Assembly (NCBI GenBank): GCA_963700955.1
Contig: CAVOZH010000005.1
Location: 36,561-100,560 of the forward strand
DNA length: 64,000 nucleotides
From: an uncultured Actinomycetota bacterium
Lineage (GTDB): Bacteria; Actinomycetota; Actinomycetes; Propionibacteriales; Nocardioidaceae
Reading direction: 5' to 3'
Shown piece by piece: positions 56,588-63,701 of the stretch (position 1 is the stretch's first letter; each line of letters begins with the position of its first letter). A program made the position numbers and the translations under genes. A model generated the notes under the pieces. That model searched no databases. It was not told the DNA's origin and was given only the letters and a program-made list of their open reading frames with translations.

Positions 56588-56677
56588 GGTGCCTCCTCGG
56601 GCGTGGTCGGTGCTGTCCGGAGGCTACCCGGACCGCACGCGTCCGCTGCGGGCAGCCGGTGTAGCCTGACCGCAGAA

Positions 56678-56765
56678 CGACAGGGGAGCGCCGACCGGGC
56701 GCTGAGAGTGCGGAACGGCCGCAGACCCTCGAACCTGATCCGGCTCATACCGGCGAAGGAAGTCG
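56678..56765 (+). promoter_or_regulatory. TPP (THI-box) riboswitch controlling thiBPQ
   Basis: CGAC-AGGGGAGCGCCGACCGGGCGCUGAGAGUGCGGAACGGCCGCAGACCCUCGAACCUGAUCCGGCUCAUACCGGCGAAGGAA-GUCG. It is followed by hairpin GATCGCA-tgcg-TGCGATC (56772-56789). CUCCC (56792-56796) can sequester the SD GGGAG (56808-56812) before ATG 56819. Confidence 0.9.
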
Positions 56766-56818
56766 AGTCTCGATCGCATGCGTGCGATCCCCTCCCTGAA
56801 CCTTCGTGGGAGAAATGC

Positions 56819-57937
56819 ATGTCCATCAAGTCCTTGGCAGCGCACCGCAGCGGGCGCGTCGCCGTGATCGCTGCTCTGTCCCTGAGCCTGTCGCTGGGGC
56901 TCAACGCCTGCTCGCTCGGAGGTACCTCCAGCGAGTCGACCGACTCCGGCGACGCCTCCGGCGCCCCGGCGAAGAAGGAGGTCGTGCTCGCGACCCACGA
57001 GTCGTGGGCGGTGCCGAAGGAGGTGCTCGCGGAGTTCACCCGCGAGACCGGCTACCACCTGAAGGTCGAGGCCGCCGGGGACGCAGGTGCGCTGACCAAC
57101 AAGCTCGTGCTGACCAAGGGCTCCCCGACGGCCGACGTCGCCTACGGGGTCGACAACACCTTCGCCTCGCGCGCTGTGGGCGAGGGCGTCTTCGCGGACT
57201 ACGCGCCGTCGAAGGCGCCGGCCTCGGCGGCCGGCTTCGAGATGCCTGACAAGGCCGGCGCCTCCGCTCTCACACCGGTCGACTTCGGCGACGTGTGCGT
57301 GAACATCGACGACGCCTGGTTCGCGAAGAAGGGCGTCAAGCCGCCCCGCACCCTCGACGACCTGACCGACCCGGCGTACAAGAACCTCTTCGTCACCCCG
57401 GGCGCCTCGACCTCCTCGCCGGGGCTCGCCTTCATGCTCGCGACCATCGCGAAGTACGGCGAGGACGGCTGGCAGAAGTACTGGGAGCAGCTCATGGCCA
57501 ACGGCACCCGGATCACCTCCGGCTGGACCGACGCCTACACCGTCGACTTCACCGCCGGTGGCGGCAACGGCGACCGGCCGATCGTGCTGTCCTACGACTC
57601 GTCGCCGCCGTTCACGATCCCCAAGGGTGGCGACAAGCCGACGACGAGCGCGCTGCTCGACACGTGCTACCGGCAGGTGGAGTACGCGGGCGTGCTCAAG
57701 GGGGCGTCCAACCCCGAGGGCGCGAAGGCGCTGGTGGACTTCATGCAGACGCCGACCTTCCAGGAGGCGCTCCCCGAGAACATGTACGTGTTCCCGGTCG
57801 ACGACTCCGTGAAGCTGCCCGACGTCTGGGCGAAGTGGGCGAAGACCCCGGAGAAGCCGTTCAACGTCGAGCCGGCGAAGGTCGCCGAGAACCGTGACAA
57901 GTGGCTGACCGCCTGGGGGGAGATCACCACCAGGTGA
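56819..57937 (+). CDS. thiB: Thiamine ABC transporter substrate-binding lipoprotein
   Basis: Start moved to ATG 56819. Lipobox LSLGLNACS. ThiB/TbpA-like sequence. Riboswitch immediately upstream. Confidence 0.85.
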   Translation: MSIKSLAAHRSGRVAVIAALSLSLSLGLNACSLGGTSSESTDSGDASGAPAKKEVVLATHESWAVPKEVLAEFTRETGYHLKVEAAGDAGALTNKLVLTKGSPTADVAYGVDNTFASRAVGEGVFADYAPSKAPASAAGFEMPDKAGASALTPVDFGDVCVNIDDAWFAKKGVKPPRTLDDLTDPAYKNLFVTPGASTSSPGLAFMLATIAKYGEDGWQKYWEQLMANGTRITSGWTDAYTVDFTAGGGNGDRPIVLSYDSSPPFTIPKGGDKPTTSALLDTCYRQVEYAGVLKGASNPEGAKALVDFMQTPTFQEALPENMYVFPVDDSVKLPDVWAKWAKTPEKPFNVEPAKVAENRDKWLTAWGEITTR

Positions 57938-59586
57938 GAGGCCAGTGGGGAACGCGCCTCGGGACCGTCGCATTGGCGGTGGTCCCGGTCGCGTTCCTCT
58001 GCGTCTTCTTCCTGCTGCCCCTGACGGGGATGCTCGCACAGGGGTTCTGGGTCGACGGCTCCCTGGATCTGAGCGGCCTGGCCGAGACGCTGTCGCGCCC
58101 GCGAGTGCACAGAGTGCTGTGGTTCACCGCGTGGTCGTCGCTCACCGCCACCGCGGTCACCACGGCCCTCGGGGTGCCGTTGGCCTACGCCTTGTACCGG
58201 CTCGAGTTCCCGGGTCGGCAGGCCCTCCGCGCGCTCGTGGTGATGCCGTTCGTGCTGCCCACCGTCGTGGTCGGGGTCGCCTTCCGGACGCTCCTCGCTC
58301 CCGCTGGCCCGCTCGGGTTCCTCCGCCTCGACGGGACCGCGGTCGCGATCCTCGCCGCGATGATCTTCTTCAACCTCGCCGTCGTGGTGCGCACGGTGGG
58401 TGGCCTGTGGGAGAGCCTCGACCACCGGCGTGAGGACGCCGCCGCGGCGCTCGGTGCCTCGCCCTGGCAGGTGCTGCGCACCGTCACGCTCCCGGCGCTG
58501 AAGCCGGGGATCGTCTCGGCGGCGACGGTCGTGTTCCTCTTCTGCTCCACGGCGTTCGGGGTCGTGCTGACCCTCGGCGGCCTGCGCTACGGCACGGTCG
58601 AGACCGAGATCTACATCCTCACCACGCAGTTCCTCGACCTCCGCGCGGCAGCGGTGCTGTCCGTCGTGCAGCTGCTCGCGATCGTCGTGCTCCTGTTCCT
58701 CGCCGGACGCACCCGCGGTCGGCGGTCGCAGGCCCTGGAGAGGACCGGCGGCCGGAAGTCGCGCACGCGTCCGGGCCGGAGGGACGCCCCGGCGCTGGCG
58801 GTCACCGCCGCGACGGTGGTCTTCCTGGCCGTGCCCCTGCTGACGCTGGTGGTGCGGTCGCTGCGCACAAGCAGTGGCTGGGGGCTCGACAACTACCGGA
58901 GCCTGGGTACGACGGGCAGCGGGACCGCCCTCCTCGTGCCCGTGTGGACCGCCCTGGACAACTCGCTGCGCATCGCCGTGGACGCCACCGTGCTCGCGTT
59001 GAGCCTCGGCCTCGCGGTCGCCTTCCTCGTCTCGCGTCCCGCACGCGGACGGGCGGAGCGGCGCGGCAGGGCGTTCCTGGACGGGCTGTTCATGCTGCCG
59101 CTCGGCGTCTCCGCGGTGACCATCGGCTTCGGCTTCCTCATCACGCTCGACCAGCCACCGCTCGACCTGCGCTCCTCCCCGCTGCTCGTGCCCATCGCGC
59201 AGGCGATGGTTGCCCTGCCGCTCGTCGTGCGCACCCTCGTCCCGGTGCTGCGCTCGATCGACCCGCGGCAGCGTCAGGCCGCGGCCACCTTGGGCGCCTC
59301 CCCGTTGCGGGCGCTTCTCGTGGTCGACGTTCCGGCCGCGTGGCGTTCCGTCCTGGCCGCGGCCGGCCTCGCGTTCGCGGTGTCCCTGGGGGAGTTCGGC
59401 GCGACCAGCTTCCTCGCGCGGCCCGACCGTCCGACGCTGCCGGTGGTGATCTACCAGCTGATCTCCCGGCCGGGGGCGGAGAACTTCGGCACGGCGCTGG
59501 CGGCGTCCGTCGTCCTGGCCCTGGTCACGGTGACCGTGATGGGGGCCGTCGAGCGACTGCGCGTCGGGTCGATGGGATCGTTCTGA
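57934..59586 (+). CDS. thiP: Thiamine/iron-type ABC transporter permease (duplicated)
   Basis: GTG 57934 overlaps the thiB stop (GTGA). About 12 TM, two EAA-like loops (EDAAAALGASPWQVLRTVTLP; RQAAATLGASPLRAL). Confidence 0.85.
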   Translation: MRGQWGTRLGTVALAVVPVAFLCVFFLLPLTGMLAQGFWVDGSLDLSGLAETLSRPRVHRVLWFTAWSSLTATAVTTALGVPLAYALYRLEFPGRQALRALVVMPFVLPTVVVGVAFRTLLAPAGPLGFLRLDGTAVAILAAMIFFNLAVVVRTVGGLWESLDHRREDAAAALGASPWQVLRTVTLPALKPGIVSAATVVFLFCSTAFGVVLTLGGLRYGTVETEIYILTTQFLDLRAAAVLSVVQLLAIVVLLFLAGRTRGRRSQALERTGGRKSRTRPGRRDAPALAVTAATVVFLAVPLLTLVVRSLRTSSGWGLDNYRSLGTTGSGTALLVPVWTALDNSLRIAVDATVLALSLGLAVAFLVSRPARGRAERRGRAFLDGLFMLPLGVSAVTIGFGFLITLDQPPLDLRSSPLLVPIAQAMVALPLVVRTLVPVLRSIDPRQRQAAATLGASPLRALLVVDVPAAWRSVLAAAGLAFAVSLGEFGATSFLARPDRPTLPVVIYQLISRPGAENFGTALAASVVLALVTVTVMGAVERLRVGSMGSF

Positions 59587-59587
59587 C

Positions 59588-60601
59588 ATGCTCACCGTCC
59601 GCGACCTGACCGTCCGCTTCGACGGCCTCACGGCCGTGGAGGACGTGTCGCTCGACCTCCCGACCGGTGAGGTGCTCGCGGTGCTGGGGCCGTCGGGATG
59701 CGGGAAGTCCACGCTCCTGCGCGGGATCGCCGGTCTCGAGATGCTCAGCTCCGGCGCCGTCGCCTTCGACGGTCAGGACCTCGCGGGCGTGCCGACCCAC
59801 AAACGACGGTTCGCGCTGATGTTCCAGGACGGCCAGCTCTTCCCGCACCAGAGCGTCGCGGCCAACGTCGGCTACCCGCTGCGGCTTCGCGGCACCTCGC
59901 GCGGCGTGGTGTCGACTCGGGTCGGGGAGCTGCTGGAGCTCGTCGGCCTGCCCGGCCACGGCGACCGGCTCCCCGCCGAGCTCTCGGGAGGTGAGCGCCA
60001 GCGGGTGGCCCTGGCACGCTCCCTGGCGGCCGATCCGCGGCTCCTTCTGCTCGACGAGCCGCTCTCGGCGCTCGACCGCGAGCTGCGCGAGCGGCTCGCC
60101 GGCGACCTGCGCGACATCCTCACCTCGGCCGGGACGACCGCGATCCTGGTCACCCACGACCAGGACGAGGTGTGGACCGTCGCGGACCGGGTCGCCGTCA
60201 TGCAGGCGGGCCGGATCCTCCAGGCAGGCACGTTGGACGATGTGTGGCGGGCGCCTGCGAGCGACGCGGCCGCGCTGCTGCTCGGCTACCCGACGATCCT
60301 GCGGGGTGCGGCCGCGCAGCTCCTCGCTCGGGCGGGGGAGCACCACGACGTGGACTCGGTCGGCGCGATCGCCCTGCGACGCTCCGCCCTGCGCGTCGAT
60401 CCCGCGGGGCGGCTGGGCGGGCGCGTGGTCGCCGCGACGGTGAGCCCCGACGTCGTACGGCTCCGGGTGCTGGTCGAAGGGCTGGGGGAGATGCACGCCG
60501 TGGCCCGCCAGGATGCCGATGTCCGGATCGACCACGAGGTCTGCCTCGCGGTCGACCTGGCGCGCACCGCCGTACTTCCCGCGCCCTCTCCTGCGCGCTG
60601 A
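59588..60601 (+). CDS. thiQ: ABC transporter ATP-binding protein
   Basis: Walker A GPSGCGKST, signature LSGGERQRVALAR, Walker B LLLLDEP. Confidence 0.85.
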   Translation: MLTVRDLTVRFDGLTAVEDVSLDLPTGEVLAVLGPSGCGKSTLLRGIAGLEMLSSGAVAFDGQDLAGVPTHKRRFALMFQDGQLFPHQSVAANVGYPLRLRGTSRGVVSTRVGELLELVGLPGHGDRLPAELSGGERQRVALARSLAADPRLLLLDEPLSALDRELRERLAGDLRDILTSAGTTAILVTHDQDEVWTVADRVAVMQAGRILQAGTLDDVWRAPASDAAALLLGYPTILRGAAAQLLARAGEHHDVDSVGAIALRRSALRVDPAGRLGGRVVAATVSPDVVRLRVLVEGLGEMHAVARQDADVRIDHEVCLAVDLARTAVLPAPSPAR

Positions 60602-60638
60602 CCGGATTGGGCGGTTCGTTACTGAGTGTGTCCCTATT

Positions 60639-60822
60639 CGGGACTCACCGGCTTCCCTTGACCCGCACCCCGATCGGGGGTTCGGGTGCTTGGTTGCCTT
60701 CCAGCCGCCACCTTCGTCCTTGCGGGTGGTCTTGCGCTGGTTCCGACCCAAGGGCTCTTCGTGGTGCGAGGTGGCGGTCGGCTCTTGGCCCGGCCCATCC
60801 GGGTGCAGACGCGGAGCGTGCG
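60639..60822 (-). ncRNA. Candidate TnpB omega/right-end RNA scaffold region
   Basis: Non-coding 184 nt directly 3' of the tnpB stop with several hairpins on the minus strand (e.g. ACCCGAACCCC-gatc-GGGGTGCGGGT). None of the three frames shows DDE-transposase-like sequence. Confidence 0.3.
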
Positions 60823-62163
60823 TCAGGCGGCCACCGGTTGTGGCGGTGCAGGCTTCGGGGGTGGTGCGGTGTAGCGGGCCAGGTTGATCGCCGCGTTCAC
60901 GTCCCGGTCGAGGACCAGGCCGCACGAGGAGCAGTGGTAGACCCGGTCGGCCAGGGCCAGCTCGCCGTCGATGGTGCCGCAGCCCGAGCAGGTCTTGCTC
61001 GAGGGGAACCAGCGGTCGGCGACCACGAGCTCGGTGCCGTACCAGGCGGCCTTGTACTCCAGTTGCCGCCGGAACTCTCCGAACGCGGCGTCCGACACCA
61101 CCCGGGCGAGCCTCCGGTTGGCGAGCATCCCGGCGGCGTTGAGGTCTTCGACGGTCACCGACGTGTGGCCGCGGGCGAGCTGCGTGGTGATCTGGTGGAG
61201 CTGGTTCCGGCGCAGGTGCGCGACGCGTGCGTGGATCTTGCCCAGGCGGCGTGCTGCCTTGGCTCGTCCGTTGGACCCCTTCTTGGTTCTCGAGTAGGCC
61301 TGGTTGGCGAGCTTCAGGCGTGCCTGGGCTTGCTGCAGTGCTTTCACCCCCTCCCACGCGTGCAGCACGAGACCGTGTTCGTCCGCGACGACCGCGAGGG
61401 TCTTCACGCCCAGGTCGACACCCGCCCGGCCTGGGTGGCGGTCCTTCGAGGTTCGGCGCTGGTGGTGGAGTCGTGCGGCGACCCCGGTGATCGCGACCAC
61501 CCACCGGCCGCGCTCGTACCGAAACGACGCCGCGTAGGCGTGGAACCTGCCGGCGGCGAGCATCTTCGTGAGCCTGCCGGTGTGCTCGTGGACCCGCAGC
61601 TCACCGAGCTTCGGGAACCGGATGGTTCGCGGCCCGGTAGGTCGCACCGACGGTGTGGCGCCTTCGCGGTACTTGGCCCGGAGCCGGAACGCCGGTGCGG
61701 TCTTGCGGCGGGACTTGAACCGCGGGAACCCCGCAGCCTTCCCGGTCCGTTCGCCGGTGCGGGACTTCGACCAGTTCGCGAGCGCCTGGGCGGCGTTCAC
61801 CGACGCGCACTCGAACACGTCCGCCGAGACCTCGCCGCGCCACGGCAGTCCGCGGACCTCGTTGCCGTCGGCGTCGACCGAGGTCCGGGCTTTCGGGGCG
61901 CGGCCGTCCTTCCAGGCGTTCATGTGGTTGATGAACGACACCTTGCTCCACGACAACGTCGGGGTCAGGTCCGCCTCGGGGATGCCGTAGGACCTCTCGG
62001 CGGCCCGCTGGTCGAGGTTGGCCCTCACCCGGCCCAGGTGGTGGTTGAACGCCAGCCGTGCGGCCCCTGCGTGCGCGAGGAGCTGCTGGCACTGTTCATG
62101 GTTCGGGTCGAGCGTGAACCGGAACGTGGTCGCGCGGGTCAGCGGTACACCGGTGTGCGACAC
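60823..62163 (-). CDS. tnpB: TnpB (IS200/IS605-family OrfB, RuvC-like RNA-guided endonuclease)
   Basis: The start is uncertain (GTG 62163 chosen; the track ORF extends to GTG 62265). TTFRFTLDPNHEQ N-terminus. RuvC D/E/D (GVDLGVKT, VTVEDLN, DRDVNAAINLA). Zn finger CSGCG...CSSCG. Confidence 0.85.
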   Translation of the reverse strand: MSHTGVPLTRATTFRFTLDPNHEQCQQLLAHAGAARLAFNHHLGRVRANLDQRAAERSYGIPEADLTPTLSWSKVSFINHMNAWKDGRAPKARTSVDADGNEVRGLPWRGEVSADVFECASVNAAQALANWSKSRTGERTGKAAGFPRFKSRRKTAPAFRLRAKYREGATPSVRPTGPRTIRFPKLGELRVHEHTGRLTKMLAAGRFHAYAASFRYERGRWVVAITGVAARLHHQRRTSKDRHPGRAGVDLGVKTLAVVADEHGLVLHAWEGVKALQQAQARLKLANQAYSRTKKGSNGRAKAARRLGKIHARVAHLRRNQLHQITTQLARGHTSVTVEDLNAAGMLANRRLARVVSDAAFGEFRRQLEYKAAWYGTELVVADRWFPSSKTCSGCGTIDGELALADRVYHCSSCGLVLDRDVNAAINLARYTAPPPKPAPPQPVAA

Positions 62164-62259
62164 CAGCGTGGTGTCGACCTTCCTAGCGGCGGTTACCGGC
62201 ACGTGGTGATGGTGCCGCACACCACCGACATTTAGGTTGAGTGTGCGCCCCGCGGACTC

Positions 62260-62286
62260 GGGCACACCCTCTTATCGGGTGTGCCC
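62260..62286 (-). repeat. Perfect 10-bp stem hairpin upstream of tnpB (IS200/IS605-style subterminal hairpin candidate)
   Basis: GGGCACACCC-tcttatc-GGGTGTGCCC. Confidence 0.45.
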
Positions 62287-62577
62287 CATTCCGGATGAGC
62301 GGGCGTCAGGATGATCAATCACGCTCAGCGGAGCGACTCCCGGCTTCCAGGTGCCGTTGCGCGCCCAGCGTCGGAACTGCGACCACACCCGCGTCCACGG
62401 CCCGAACGACTCGGGCAGGAACCGCCACTGGCAGCCGGTGTTGGAGACGTAGCGCATCGCGTCCACCACCACCCTGCGCAGGTCGTCGGCGTGCTTGCGG
62501 CCCCGCTTGCCTGGAGCGTTGAACACCGGCTCCAGCAGGTTCCACTCCTCGTCGGTCACGTCACTTGGGTACGTCAT
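62272..62577 (-). pseudogene. Truncated IS5-family transposase orfA (DUF4096-type N-terminal domain)
   Basis: MTYPSDVTDEEWNLLEPVF...GRKHADDLRRVVVDAMRYVSNTGCQWRFLPESFGPWTRVWSQFRRWARNGTW is the typical IS427/IS1031-group orfA N-terminus. Similarity stops after GTW (about 62347). No frameshifted DDE orfB follows. Confidence 0.7.
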
Positions 62578-62642
62578 GCCTCGCACGGTGACGCCGAGCC
62601 GCATCACGGCAATAGGGACACACCCCGTTAGACTCCGCGCTT

Positions 62643-63701
62643 GTGAAGCGGCGGGCGTACGGACTCCTGGTGGGAGTCGCACTGATGATGGGCCTGCTCG
62701 CCGTCGTAGCCAGCCAGCGGCTCGGTCTGCCCATCCGCGACCCCGATGGCTTCCTCGGCCCGGCCTGGATCCGGCTGCCGCTGCTCGTCCTCGGCGCCTT
62801 CCTCGCGGACGTGGTCCCGCGCTCGGCGTGGCGGTCGCGGGGCAACCTCTCGAGGTTCCGCGAGGAGGCTCGGACCATCGTGCGCGAGCACTGGACCCAC
62901 GAGCGGATCGTCCTCGTGGTGATCGGGCTGGTCAGCTTCTACGTCACCTACGTCAGCTACCGGAACCTCAAGAACTTCCTGCCGTTCATCCGCGAGGGAA
63001 CCCAGGACCCGCTGCTCAAGGCGATCGACGAGGCGATCTTCTTCGGCGGCGACCCCGCGATCTTCCTGCACACCGTGCTCGGCGAGGGCGCCACGGCGCA
63101 CGTGCTGTCCTACGTCTACCTGATCTTCCTGCCGTTCGTGCCGCTCTCGGTGACGGCGTGGCTGGTGTGGTCGCGCAACATCAGCTTCGGCTACTGGTAC
63201 GTCACCGCCCAGTGCCTTGCCTGGTCGCTCGGCACCGCGAGCTACTACGCGATCCCCTCGCTCGGGCCGGCGTTCTACTACGTATGGCTCTACTCCGGGC
63301 TCGAGAACACCGGTGTGACCCAGCTCCAGGACGCCTTGTTCTACGGACGGTCAGAGGTCCTGTTCAACCCGTTCAACACCGACGGCGTGCAGAGCGTCGC
63401 CGGCTTCGCCTCGTTGCACATGGCGATCACACTGCTCGCGGCGCTCGTCGCGCACTACACCGTCCGGCACGCCTGGATCCGCTGGGGCCTGTGGGTCTAC
63501 GTCGTCATCACCGCCGTCTCGACGATCTACTTCGGCTGGCACTACATCGCCGACGACGTCGCCGGCGCCTTCATCGCGGTCGTCTCGGTGTACCTCGGCG
63601 GCCTTGCCACGGGGCAGAAGTTCGACAGACACGGGATCGCGTCGCATCCGACGACGAGCACGGCCGAGGTCCCGGTCGAGTCGACCTCCGTCTCGAGCTG
63701 A
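62643..63701 (+). CDS. PAP2-superfamily membrane protein (inositol-phosphorylceramide-synthase-like PAP2_C type)
   Basis: GTG start. Multi-pass membrane protein with C-terminal motif FASLHMAI...STIYFGWHYIADDVAG (PAP2 SxH / HxxxD blocks). Confidence 0.75.
   Translation: MKRRAYGLLVGVALMMGLLAVVASQRLGLPIRDPDGFLGPAWIRLPLLVLGAFLADVVPRSAWRSRGNLSRFREEARTIVREHWTHERIVLVVIGLVSFYVTYVSYRNLKNFLPFIREGTQDPLLKAIDEAIFFGGDPAIFLHTVLGEGATAHVLSYVYLIFLPFVPLSVTAWLVWSRNISFGYWYVTAQCLAWSLGTASYYAIPSLGPAFYYVWLYSGLENTGVTQLQDALFYGRSEVLFNPFNTDGVQSVAGFASLHMAITLLAALVAHYTVRHAWIRWGLWVYVVITAVSTIYFGWHYIADDVAGAFIAVVSVYLGGLATGQKFDRHGIASHPTTSTAEVPVESTSVSS

Follow-up and report, generated by a model that had tools for sequence, protein, structure and literature searches.

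Branches of TnpB associated with DDE transposases, all of them with inverted terminal repeats, were described in prokaryotes by Altae-Tran et al. in 2023, together with solo TnpBs that share these ends and whose movement is presumed to occur in trans (PMC10691335). A 2026 review lists ISL2, IS630 and IS1031 as the DDE partners of TnpB, calls the association between DDE elements and OMEGA systems rare and poorly explained, and gives IS607 elements as being without terminal inverted repeats and without target duplication (PMC13565253). For the Fanzors carried in DDE transposons, Yoon et al. (2023) reported that the terminal inverted repeat (TIR) and the target-site duplication (TSD) lie within the RNA scaffold (PMC10711439). 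Here we describe an element of this kind in 64,000 nucleotides (referred to as the window) of contig CAVOZH010000005.1, from an uncultured bacterium of the Nocardioidaceae (Actinomycetota). We conclude, with a probability of roughly 80%, that positions 60622-62627 of the window are a 2006-bp non-autonomous transposon with IS5-type ends, in which a gutted IS5 is fused to tnpB and a guide-RNA region.

An earlier interpretation of the same DNA, made from its letters and open reading frames (the sequence-only reading), held that carriage of TnpB inside DDE-transposon ends is known mainly for Fanzor relatives. This has to be corrected, as bacterial cases are reported in PMC10691335 and summarised in PMC13565253: the combination of TnpB with DDE-type ends was already described in 2023, and the window element adds a member. 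What is added here is the tandem-fusion anatomy, an empty site, a census of TSDs and targets, and RNA covariation for an Actinomycetota clade.

Insertion and anatomy of the window element

The outer inverted repeats (IRs) are 17 nt long and 15/17 identical, with CTGAGTGTGTCCCTATT at 60622-60638 and the reverse complement CGGGGTGTGTCCCTATT at 62611-62627; a new repeat search returned the same coordinates and identity as the sequence-only reading had given. TTA abuts both of them on the outer side (60619-60621 and 62628-62630). The 15-mer core of the IR turns up readily by chance, with two or more matches at three or fewer mismatches in 14 of 100 shuffles, so that its significance comes from comparison with other genomes and not from the repeat alone. 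No further copies of the IR, of the element or of its proteins were found within the 64-kb window.

About 100 related loci (cited by our L numbers) were retrieved and compared with the window element by BLASTN. Two of them show the site without the element. A metagenomic contig, L083, in which the flanking PAP2 protein is 98% identical, reads ...gaccggattgggcggttGgTTAgactccgcgcttgtgaagc..., and L084, a metagenome-assembled genome (MAG) of the Nocardioidaceae with the same gene order, is likewise element-free. The flanks are joined in both through a single TTA (...ggattgggcggttGgTTAgactccgcgcttg...). It follows that the 2006 bp are an insertion and that the TTA, which lies in the context ...CG-TTA-GA... 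and is duplicated in the window, is a true TSD, as the sequence-only reading had supposed from its 3-bp TNA pattern.

The window copy consists of two abutted units and is not nested. The first, a 353-bp internally deleted IS5 (62275-62627), holds an IR, the first ~77 transposase codons and the distal IR; the second, a 1650-bp TnpB unit (60622-62271), is made up of a 5' IR, tnpB, a structured RNA of ~220 nt and a 3' IR (Table 1). In tnpB orientation the junction reads ...CCGGAATGGGGCACACCCGA-TAA-GAGGGTGTGCCCGAGTC..., that is, the distal IR of the IS5 and the 5' IR of the TnpB unit with a TNA between them. An abutted IR-TNA-IR junction of this kind is also present in L001, L005, L007, L016, L087 and L091; in L008 the two elements are 13 bp apart, and in L014, L017, L019 and L023 the inner IRs have been lost. 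Each inner IR of the window copy has about 4-5 mismatches in 17 to the IR consensus and each outer IR has 1, which fits use of the outer pair. The perfect hairpin that had been picked out earlier was recovered at its original position, and was rejected as an IS605-type left end or a terminator, being simply two abutted IRs.

The transposase remnant opens 50 nt inside the IR with an ATG at 62577 and is truncated, both as had been read before. It matches Pfam DUF4096 with an E value of 3.7e-24; NCBIfam NF033580 (transpos_IS5_3) is covered only at model positions 1-75 of 258, and only residues 3-89 of a full IS5 transposase align to the window in tblastn, at 62589-62326. In line with the orfB that had been reported missing, no DDE domain was found anywhere in the window by Pfam, NCBIfam or tblastn with the full IS5 transposase, which makes the copy non-autonomous. 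In L001 and L004 the homologous remnant is frameshifted, a sign that it is decaying and not maintained. In the distal segment of the deleted IS5, the homology to full-length partners that could be found was confined to the IR.

Table 1. Features of the window element and its immediate ends (positions in the window).
Feature	Position	Strand	Basis
Left TTA target-site duplication	60619..60621		Empty site in L083 and L084 holds one TTA
Outer IR, 3' terminal IR of the TnpB unit (AATAGGGACACACTCAG in tnpB orientation)	60622..60638	-	Conserved unit terminus in ~30 loci
Structured RNA, candidate omega/reRNA scaffold	60626..60844	-	20-locus alignment, RNAalifold consensus, covariation
tnpB, 459 aa, GTG start	60823..62202	-	Pfam, NCBIfam NF038280, PDB-chain alignment, dN/dS
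Degenerate 5' IR of the TnpB unit (GAGGGTGTGCCCGAGTC; family consensus GAGGGTGTGTCCCTATT)	62255..62271	-	Motif comparison among loci
Perfect hairpin, the IR-IR junction of the two units	62260..62286		10-bp stem, 7-nt loop
Internal TNA (TAA in element orientation), also the stop codon of the remnant open reading frame	62272..62274		Junction common to other loci
Degenerate distal IR of the internally deleted IS5 (CCGGAATGGGGCACACCCGA)	62275..62294	-	Resembles distal IS5 IRs of L016, L087 and L091
IS5-family transposase remnant, DUF4096 N-terminal domain only	62347..62577	-	Pfam, NF033580, tblastn
Outer IR, transposase-proximal IR of the deleted IS5	62611..62627	-	Matches IRs of full IS5 partners
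Right TTA target-site duplication	62628..62630		Sequence; empty site

Related loci and the three architectures

Relatives of the window TnpB run into the thousands, and the closest come from Nocardioidaceae and other Actinomycetota, which NCBI annotates as "IS607 family element RNA-guided endonuclease TnpB"; a look-up of the window TnpB itself in assemblies gave no record. In the 31 loci with a TnpB at least 64% identical, homology reaches window position ~60621, the edge of the outer IR, and ends there or within a few nucleotides (in L029 it continues for ~10 nt). The DNA past the IR differs among all 31 and starts with T-N-A. Since homology stops at the IR and the flanks vary, the TnpB unit has this IR as its native 3' end.

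This bears directly on one of the two origins offered by the sequence-only reading, in which a TnpB unit of the IS200/IS605 type landed inside an IS5 and the DNA up to the IS5 IR was then lost, leaving ends and unit unrelated to each other. Such a history would account for the truncated transposase gene and for a TnpB RNA region that abuts an IS5-type IR. Against it, the repeat is the unit's own end in ~30 loci, solo units with matching TNA duplications among them, and the deleted IS5 retains its own distal IR beside the 5' IR of the TnpB unit. Moreover, the TnpB is of the IS607 type, and no locus of the clade has IS605 or IS607 ends or a TnpA. We regard nesting as scarcely credible, and read the locus as a tandem fusion of two units.

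When IR-like motifs were mapped across the loci, three architectures emerged: the solo unit, the fusion of DDE gene and tnpB, and the fusion with a deleted transposase gene. Solo units of ~1.62-1.64 kb have the form TNA-GAGGGTGTGTCCCTATT...tnpB...RNA...AATAGGGACACACCCAG-TNA (L012, L018, L002 and L005); solo copies that define the true ends had been named as something to look for, and these end in IS5-type IRs. The elements with both genes are 2.7-3.4 kb long (L008, L009, L014, L017, L023 and L087, plus L022, in which TnpB is 50% identical) and carry an intact IS5-family transposase gene upstream of tnpB and in the same orientation. Intact partner transposases in this position, with DUF4096 and DDE_Tnp_1 domains and an NF033580 score of 178 bits, were found in 12 genome loci and 5 metagenome loci, which supplies the part of the gene that the window copy lacks. 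Elements with such a transposase are themselves bounded by the IR of ~17 nt, so the repeats do end IS5-family elements in other genomes.

The third architecture comprises the window copy, L001 and L004. Composites of this type thus exist with different flanks; the identical copies for which the sequence-only reading had proposed a search were not found among the loci compared, nucleotide identity being 82-86%. L001 lies at a different locus, is ~86% identical, has its own TTA/TTA duplication and keeps ~75-95 nt more of the transposase gene than the window does. L004 is a composite of deleted IS5 and TnpB unit whose deletion ends elsewhere and whose junction is truncated, and it lies at a contig end, where its duplication is not readable. 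The segment downstream of the deletion is common to the window and L001 and absent from full-length partners. Because this derived segment is shared at different loci, the composite predates the divergence of the two and moved as a unit. The second origin offered earlier, that IS5 ends now mobilise a TnpB cargo in trans, is supported by the composites elsewhere with their own TNA duplication, by the empty site and by the intact-DDE elements with the same ends. A metagenome search with a strict pattern gave 0 matches and with a relaxed pattern 17 loci, and a plasmid collection gave partial tnpB matches only and no composite.

The outer TNA pairs agree in 13/13 elements with both ends readable (solo L012, L018, L002 and L005; DDE plus tnpB L008, L009, L014, L017, L023, L087 and L022; deleted, the window and L001). 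The 37 distinct 3' flanks start with T-N-A, one of them reading TAG. Over 37 sites the insertion consensus is palindrome-like, (G)YC-TNA-G(A)(C), and stronger than a plain TNA duplication suggests, with C at -4 in 10/11 and G at +4 in 29/37.

Several further observations were made on individual members. The MAG CAWAMI01 holds four family copies (L017, L019, L023 and L024) in DDE plus tnpB and solo architectures, which points to activity within that genome. L022 (1958-5032, in an Acidimicrobiaceae MAG) is a sister element that has an IS5-type transposase gene of its own, repeats that have diverged (GAGACTGTGTCCTATTT and CAGCGTGCGTTCTATTT) and, at the palindromic target CAGTC-TTA-GACTG, a TTA/TTA duplication. 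Full-length IS5-type partners reach ~1.7 kb in L008 and L005 because they carry other passenger genes, namely a nucleotidyltransferase-like open reading frame in L008 (2620-3294; weak Pfam match to Aminoglyc_resit, E 0.0015) and a frameshifted GNAT acetyltransferase in L005 (1828-2495, minus strand). The partner in L087 has no passenger gene and measures 0.97 kb; this length and the TNA duplication presumably fit IS1031, as a lead only. In L002 (3300-3975) a TnpB unit with a shortened 5' IR directly follows the end of an IS3-family (rve) transposase gene, and 1.4 kb upstream there is a separate, oppositely oriented full IS5 partner. Decay of copies is common, with frameshifted or truncated tnpB in L041 (3472-5091), L016, L025, L027 and L029.

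TnpB, its candidate guide RNA and the proposed mechanism

The window tnpB has the Pfam domains HTH_OrfB_IS605, OrfB_IS605 and Cas12f1-like_TNB. Its GVDLG, VEDLN and DRDVNAA motifs and its CxxC...CxxC align with solved TnpB-like chains in the PDB, and the RuvC D-E-D triad and zinc finger are intact, in agreement with the complete gene that had been read from the translation. With the NCBIfam model NF038280 (IS607_TnpB) the protein reaches 374.9 bits, above the cut-off of 350. Compared with relatives that include copies of all three architectures, the ratio of nonsynonymous to synonymous substitution rates (dN/dS) is 0.22-0.34; by this measure tnpB is under purifying selection.

Neither a Y1 nor a serine recombinase was found within the window, and the earlier statement that TnpA is missing there stands. 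The lone recombinase-like match, to an IS607-type serine recombinase at 2601-2759 (40% over 57 aa, E 0.007), is far from the element and probably reflects chance or an unrelated protein. A serine recombinase was not found upstream of the close relatives either. More distant TnpBs (40-42% identity; L030, L032, L033 and L042) are without the IR and lie downstream of a TnpA with a Resolvase domain, as in canonical IS607, from which we infer that an IS607-type module of tnpB and RNA was captured by an IS5-type element in the clade ancestor. The window element thus very probably belongs to an IS5-type (IS1031/IS427-like) family, with a DUF4096 plus DDE_Tnp_1 transposase, TIRs of ~17-23 nt and a 3-bp TNA duplication, that captured an IS607-type tnpB with its guide-RNA gene.

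The last ~300 nt of 20 units were aligned and a consensus was computed with RNAalifold. It contains 11 helices, runs from window position 60844 to 60626 and starts in the last 22 nt of tnpB. Its 55 pairs are 96% paired and 18 of them show compensatory changes; covariation as high was seen in 0/500 shuffles, and in slid controls the pairing was 28-43%. The 184 nt of non-coding sequence between the tnpB stop codon and the IR (60639-60822), described as structured in the sequence-only reading, are thus folded in a conserved manner. No Rfam family was found on the element, where the only match was a sub-threshold one attributable to chance. The structured RNA would be the omega/reRNA of the window TnpB.

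In the last helix, GTGNGNCCC pairs with GGGACACAC, the inner half of the IR. The 5' arm of this helix is conserved and the corresponding inner stretch of the 5' IR varies, which suggests a constraint at the level of RNA. As the repeat is paired, we favour a reading in which the terminal repeat is folded into the scaffold and the guide would be drawn from the DNA beyond the repeat and the TNA.

The window element encodes no transposase, and its movement would depend on an IS5-family DDE transposase provided in trans by an autonomous relative, for which the 2.7-3.4-kb elements with the order IR, DDE gene, tnpB, RNA, IR are the candidates. Such a transposase, acting in cis in the long elements and in trans on solo and deleted ones, would move the DNA between outward-facing repeats and duplicate the TNA. 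TnpB with its RNA may then cut the unoccupied target, where the conserved YC-TNA could serve as a transposon-adjacent motif (TAM), and cutting of the empty target would favour retention or copying of the element. Retention or copying through nuclease cutting has been shown for IS605 and IS607. The transposition part of this mechanism is well supported by the anatomy; the nuclease part we infer. Only tentatively do we raise the possibility that the terminal repeat is built into the TnpB guide-RNA gene, that the palindromic target preference of the transposase, GYC-TNA-GRC, provides the TAM and that a cut-and-paste IS5-type element cuts its own empty site, as a bacterial counterpart of Fanzor, or else that the repeat serves as the guide and IS5 ends are policed or parasitised by TnpB.

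A number of observations tell against this account. The internal TAA equals the outer duplication in element orientation, which also fits two successive insertions at one site. No autonomous partner is present within the 64-kb window, so that present-day mobility of the window copy is unproven. Folded as a single sequence, the RNA region does no better than shuffles (z -0.99), and covariation is absent from the last helix, the one that includes the repeat, since the IR does not vary. By comparison with canonical IS607 RNAs the repeat occupies the ancestral guide slot, so that the guide boundary is placed only tentatively. Finally, the sequencing runs that match the element are metagenomic DNA only, at no more than 15% of words, with no RNA runs among them.

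If there had been two insertions, the TnpB unit would have come first and duplicated TAA, an IS5 would have entered the 5' copy of that TAA, and its middle would have been lost in place, so that the 2006 bp never moved together. Besides the identity of outer and inner TNA, such a course is matched by L087, where TTA-IS5-TTA-unit-TTA is the predicted pattern, and by the repeated landing of IS5-type elements side by side. However, the window and L001 share the derived deleted-IS5 structure at different loci with 86% identity, and L004 is a similar composite at a third locus, with another deletion end and a truncated junction. In L001 the inner TNA (TAA) is unlike the outer one (TTA), and seven composites of DDE gene and tnpB have matching outer duplications. 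Assembly in place appears quite improbable on these grounds, and movement of the composite as one piece is preferred.

The ancestral guide slot raises a different question, namely whether the guide is fixed and consists of the terminal repeat itself. The repeat would then be the ancestral right flank of an IS607-type unit that had inserted just inside an IS5 end, and TnpB would cut IS5-type ends as a homing parasite or antagonist. Canonical IS607 relatives end in ...GAGAACGG followed by the guide, and the window family has a similar ...GGGAAGCCGG followed by TGN and a 23-nt repeat; the distal IRs of co-resident IS5 elements also differ from the unit repeat (GAAATGGGAC vs GAATAGGGAC). Yet a conserved hairpin takes up the inner half of the repeat, with a 5' arm more conserved than its 5' IR equivalent, a state at odds with a free guide. 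For homologous repair, different loci would share only ~20 nt, and these on a single side, and the Fanzor precedent places TIR and TSD in the scaffold (PMC10711439). A fixed guide therefore seems unlikely to us, and the repeat is better read as part of the scaffold.

It might also be that tnpB and its RNA are carried between the IS5 ends with no effect for the element or the host in the window copy. The review argues that cut-and-paste DDE elements gain little from OMEGA (PMC13565253), and the relatives L041, L016, L025 and L027 are frameshifted or truncated. An inert passenger is nonetheless hard to reconcile with a dN/dS of 0.22-0.34 across solo and composite copies, with intact catalytic and zinc motifs and with RNA helices maintained by compensatory changes. 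We hold it to be rather doubtful, and favour a TnpB and RNA that would serve the element.

The clade forms a natural series of solo TnpB units, fused DDE and TnpB elements, deleted derivatives and empty sites, with a defined RNA and target consensus, and offers a convenient setting in which to ask where a guide begins if a terminal inverted repeat closes the RNA gene. For annotation, the lesson is that IS5-type elements can contain genes named "IS607 family TnpB".

Genomic neighbourhood and comparison with known systems

On either side of the element Pfam identifies an ABC transporter ATPase (59588-60601) and a PAP2 phosphatase (62643-63701). Further upstream, a thiamine pyrophosphate (TPP) riboswitch at 56672-56778 on the plus strand (Rfam, 69.7 bits) precedes an ABC permease (57901-59586) and the ATPase gene; in L084 and L085 a substrate-binding protein gene comes before permease and ATPase. 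To judge from this gene content, the riboswitch and transporter genes probably form a thiamine-uptake operon. Only 20 nt separate the element from the ATPase stop codon and 15 nt from the PAP2 start; so placed, it may uncouple PAP2 from upstream transcription.

Non-transposase cargo enclosed by IS-type IRs and a duplication, and moved in trans, is a feature of mobile insertion cassettes, transporter IS and derivatives of DDE insertion sequences resembling miniature inverted-repeat transposable elements. The window family is like mobile insertion cassettes in that its partners also carry other passengers (GNAT in L005, the nucleotidyltransferase-like gene in L008), and unlike them in that the cargo of the window element is an RNA-guided nuclease with an RNA gene, and that RNA gene overlaps the IR. 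As an IS5-family member the window element has matching IRs and a 3-bp TNA duplication, and an encoded DDE transposase is lacking.

With solo TnpBs of the IS1341 type in the IS200/IS605 group, the window element shares the possession of tnpB and RNA and the lack of a transposase. It has none of their subterminal hairpin ends, their absence of TIRs and of a duplication, or their Y1-dependent single-strand transposition, which in IS200/IS605 inserts 3' of a tetra- or pentanucleotide: there is no Y1 gene, the only hairpin is the IR-IR junction, and TTA is duplicated. With IS607 the type of nuclease is shared: the window TnpB passes the IS607_TnpB model, and a structured RNA overlaps the tnpB 3' end. 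In contrast to IS607, the window element and its close relatives are without a serine recombinase, and the element has TIRs and a 3-bp TNA duplication, where IS607 ends in GG.

The six DDE-associated branches of Altae-Tran et al. (DDE-1 to DDE-6) resemble the window family in having TnpB and a DDE transposase within inverted terminal repeats, and in a tnpB 3' end less than 250 bp from the element end (201 nt in the window). The window copy differs from them in having lost the DDE domain and in keeping the IR-IR junction of a tandem fusion. With the eukaryotic Fanzor1/Fanzor2* (PMC10711439) it has in common an IS607-type TnpB lineage captured by a transposon with TIR and TSD, a guide-RNA gene with a TIR at its 3' end, and non-autonomous copies in which the nuclease is all that is encoded. 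The window case differs in being bacterial, with a TnpB of ordinary size, a canonical D-E-D triad and an RNA boundary that is predicted.

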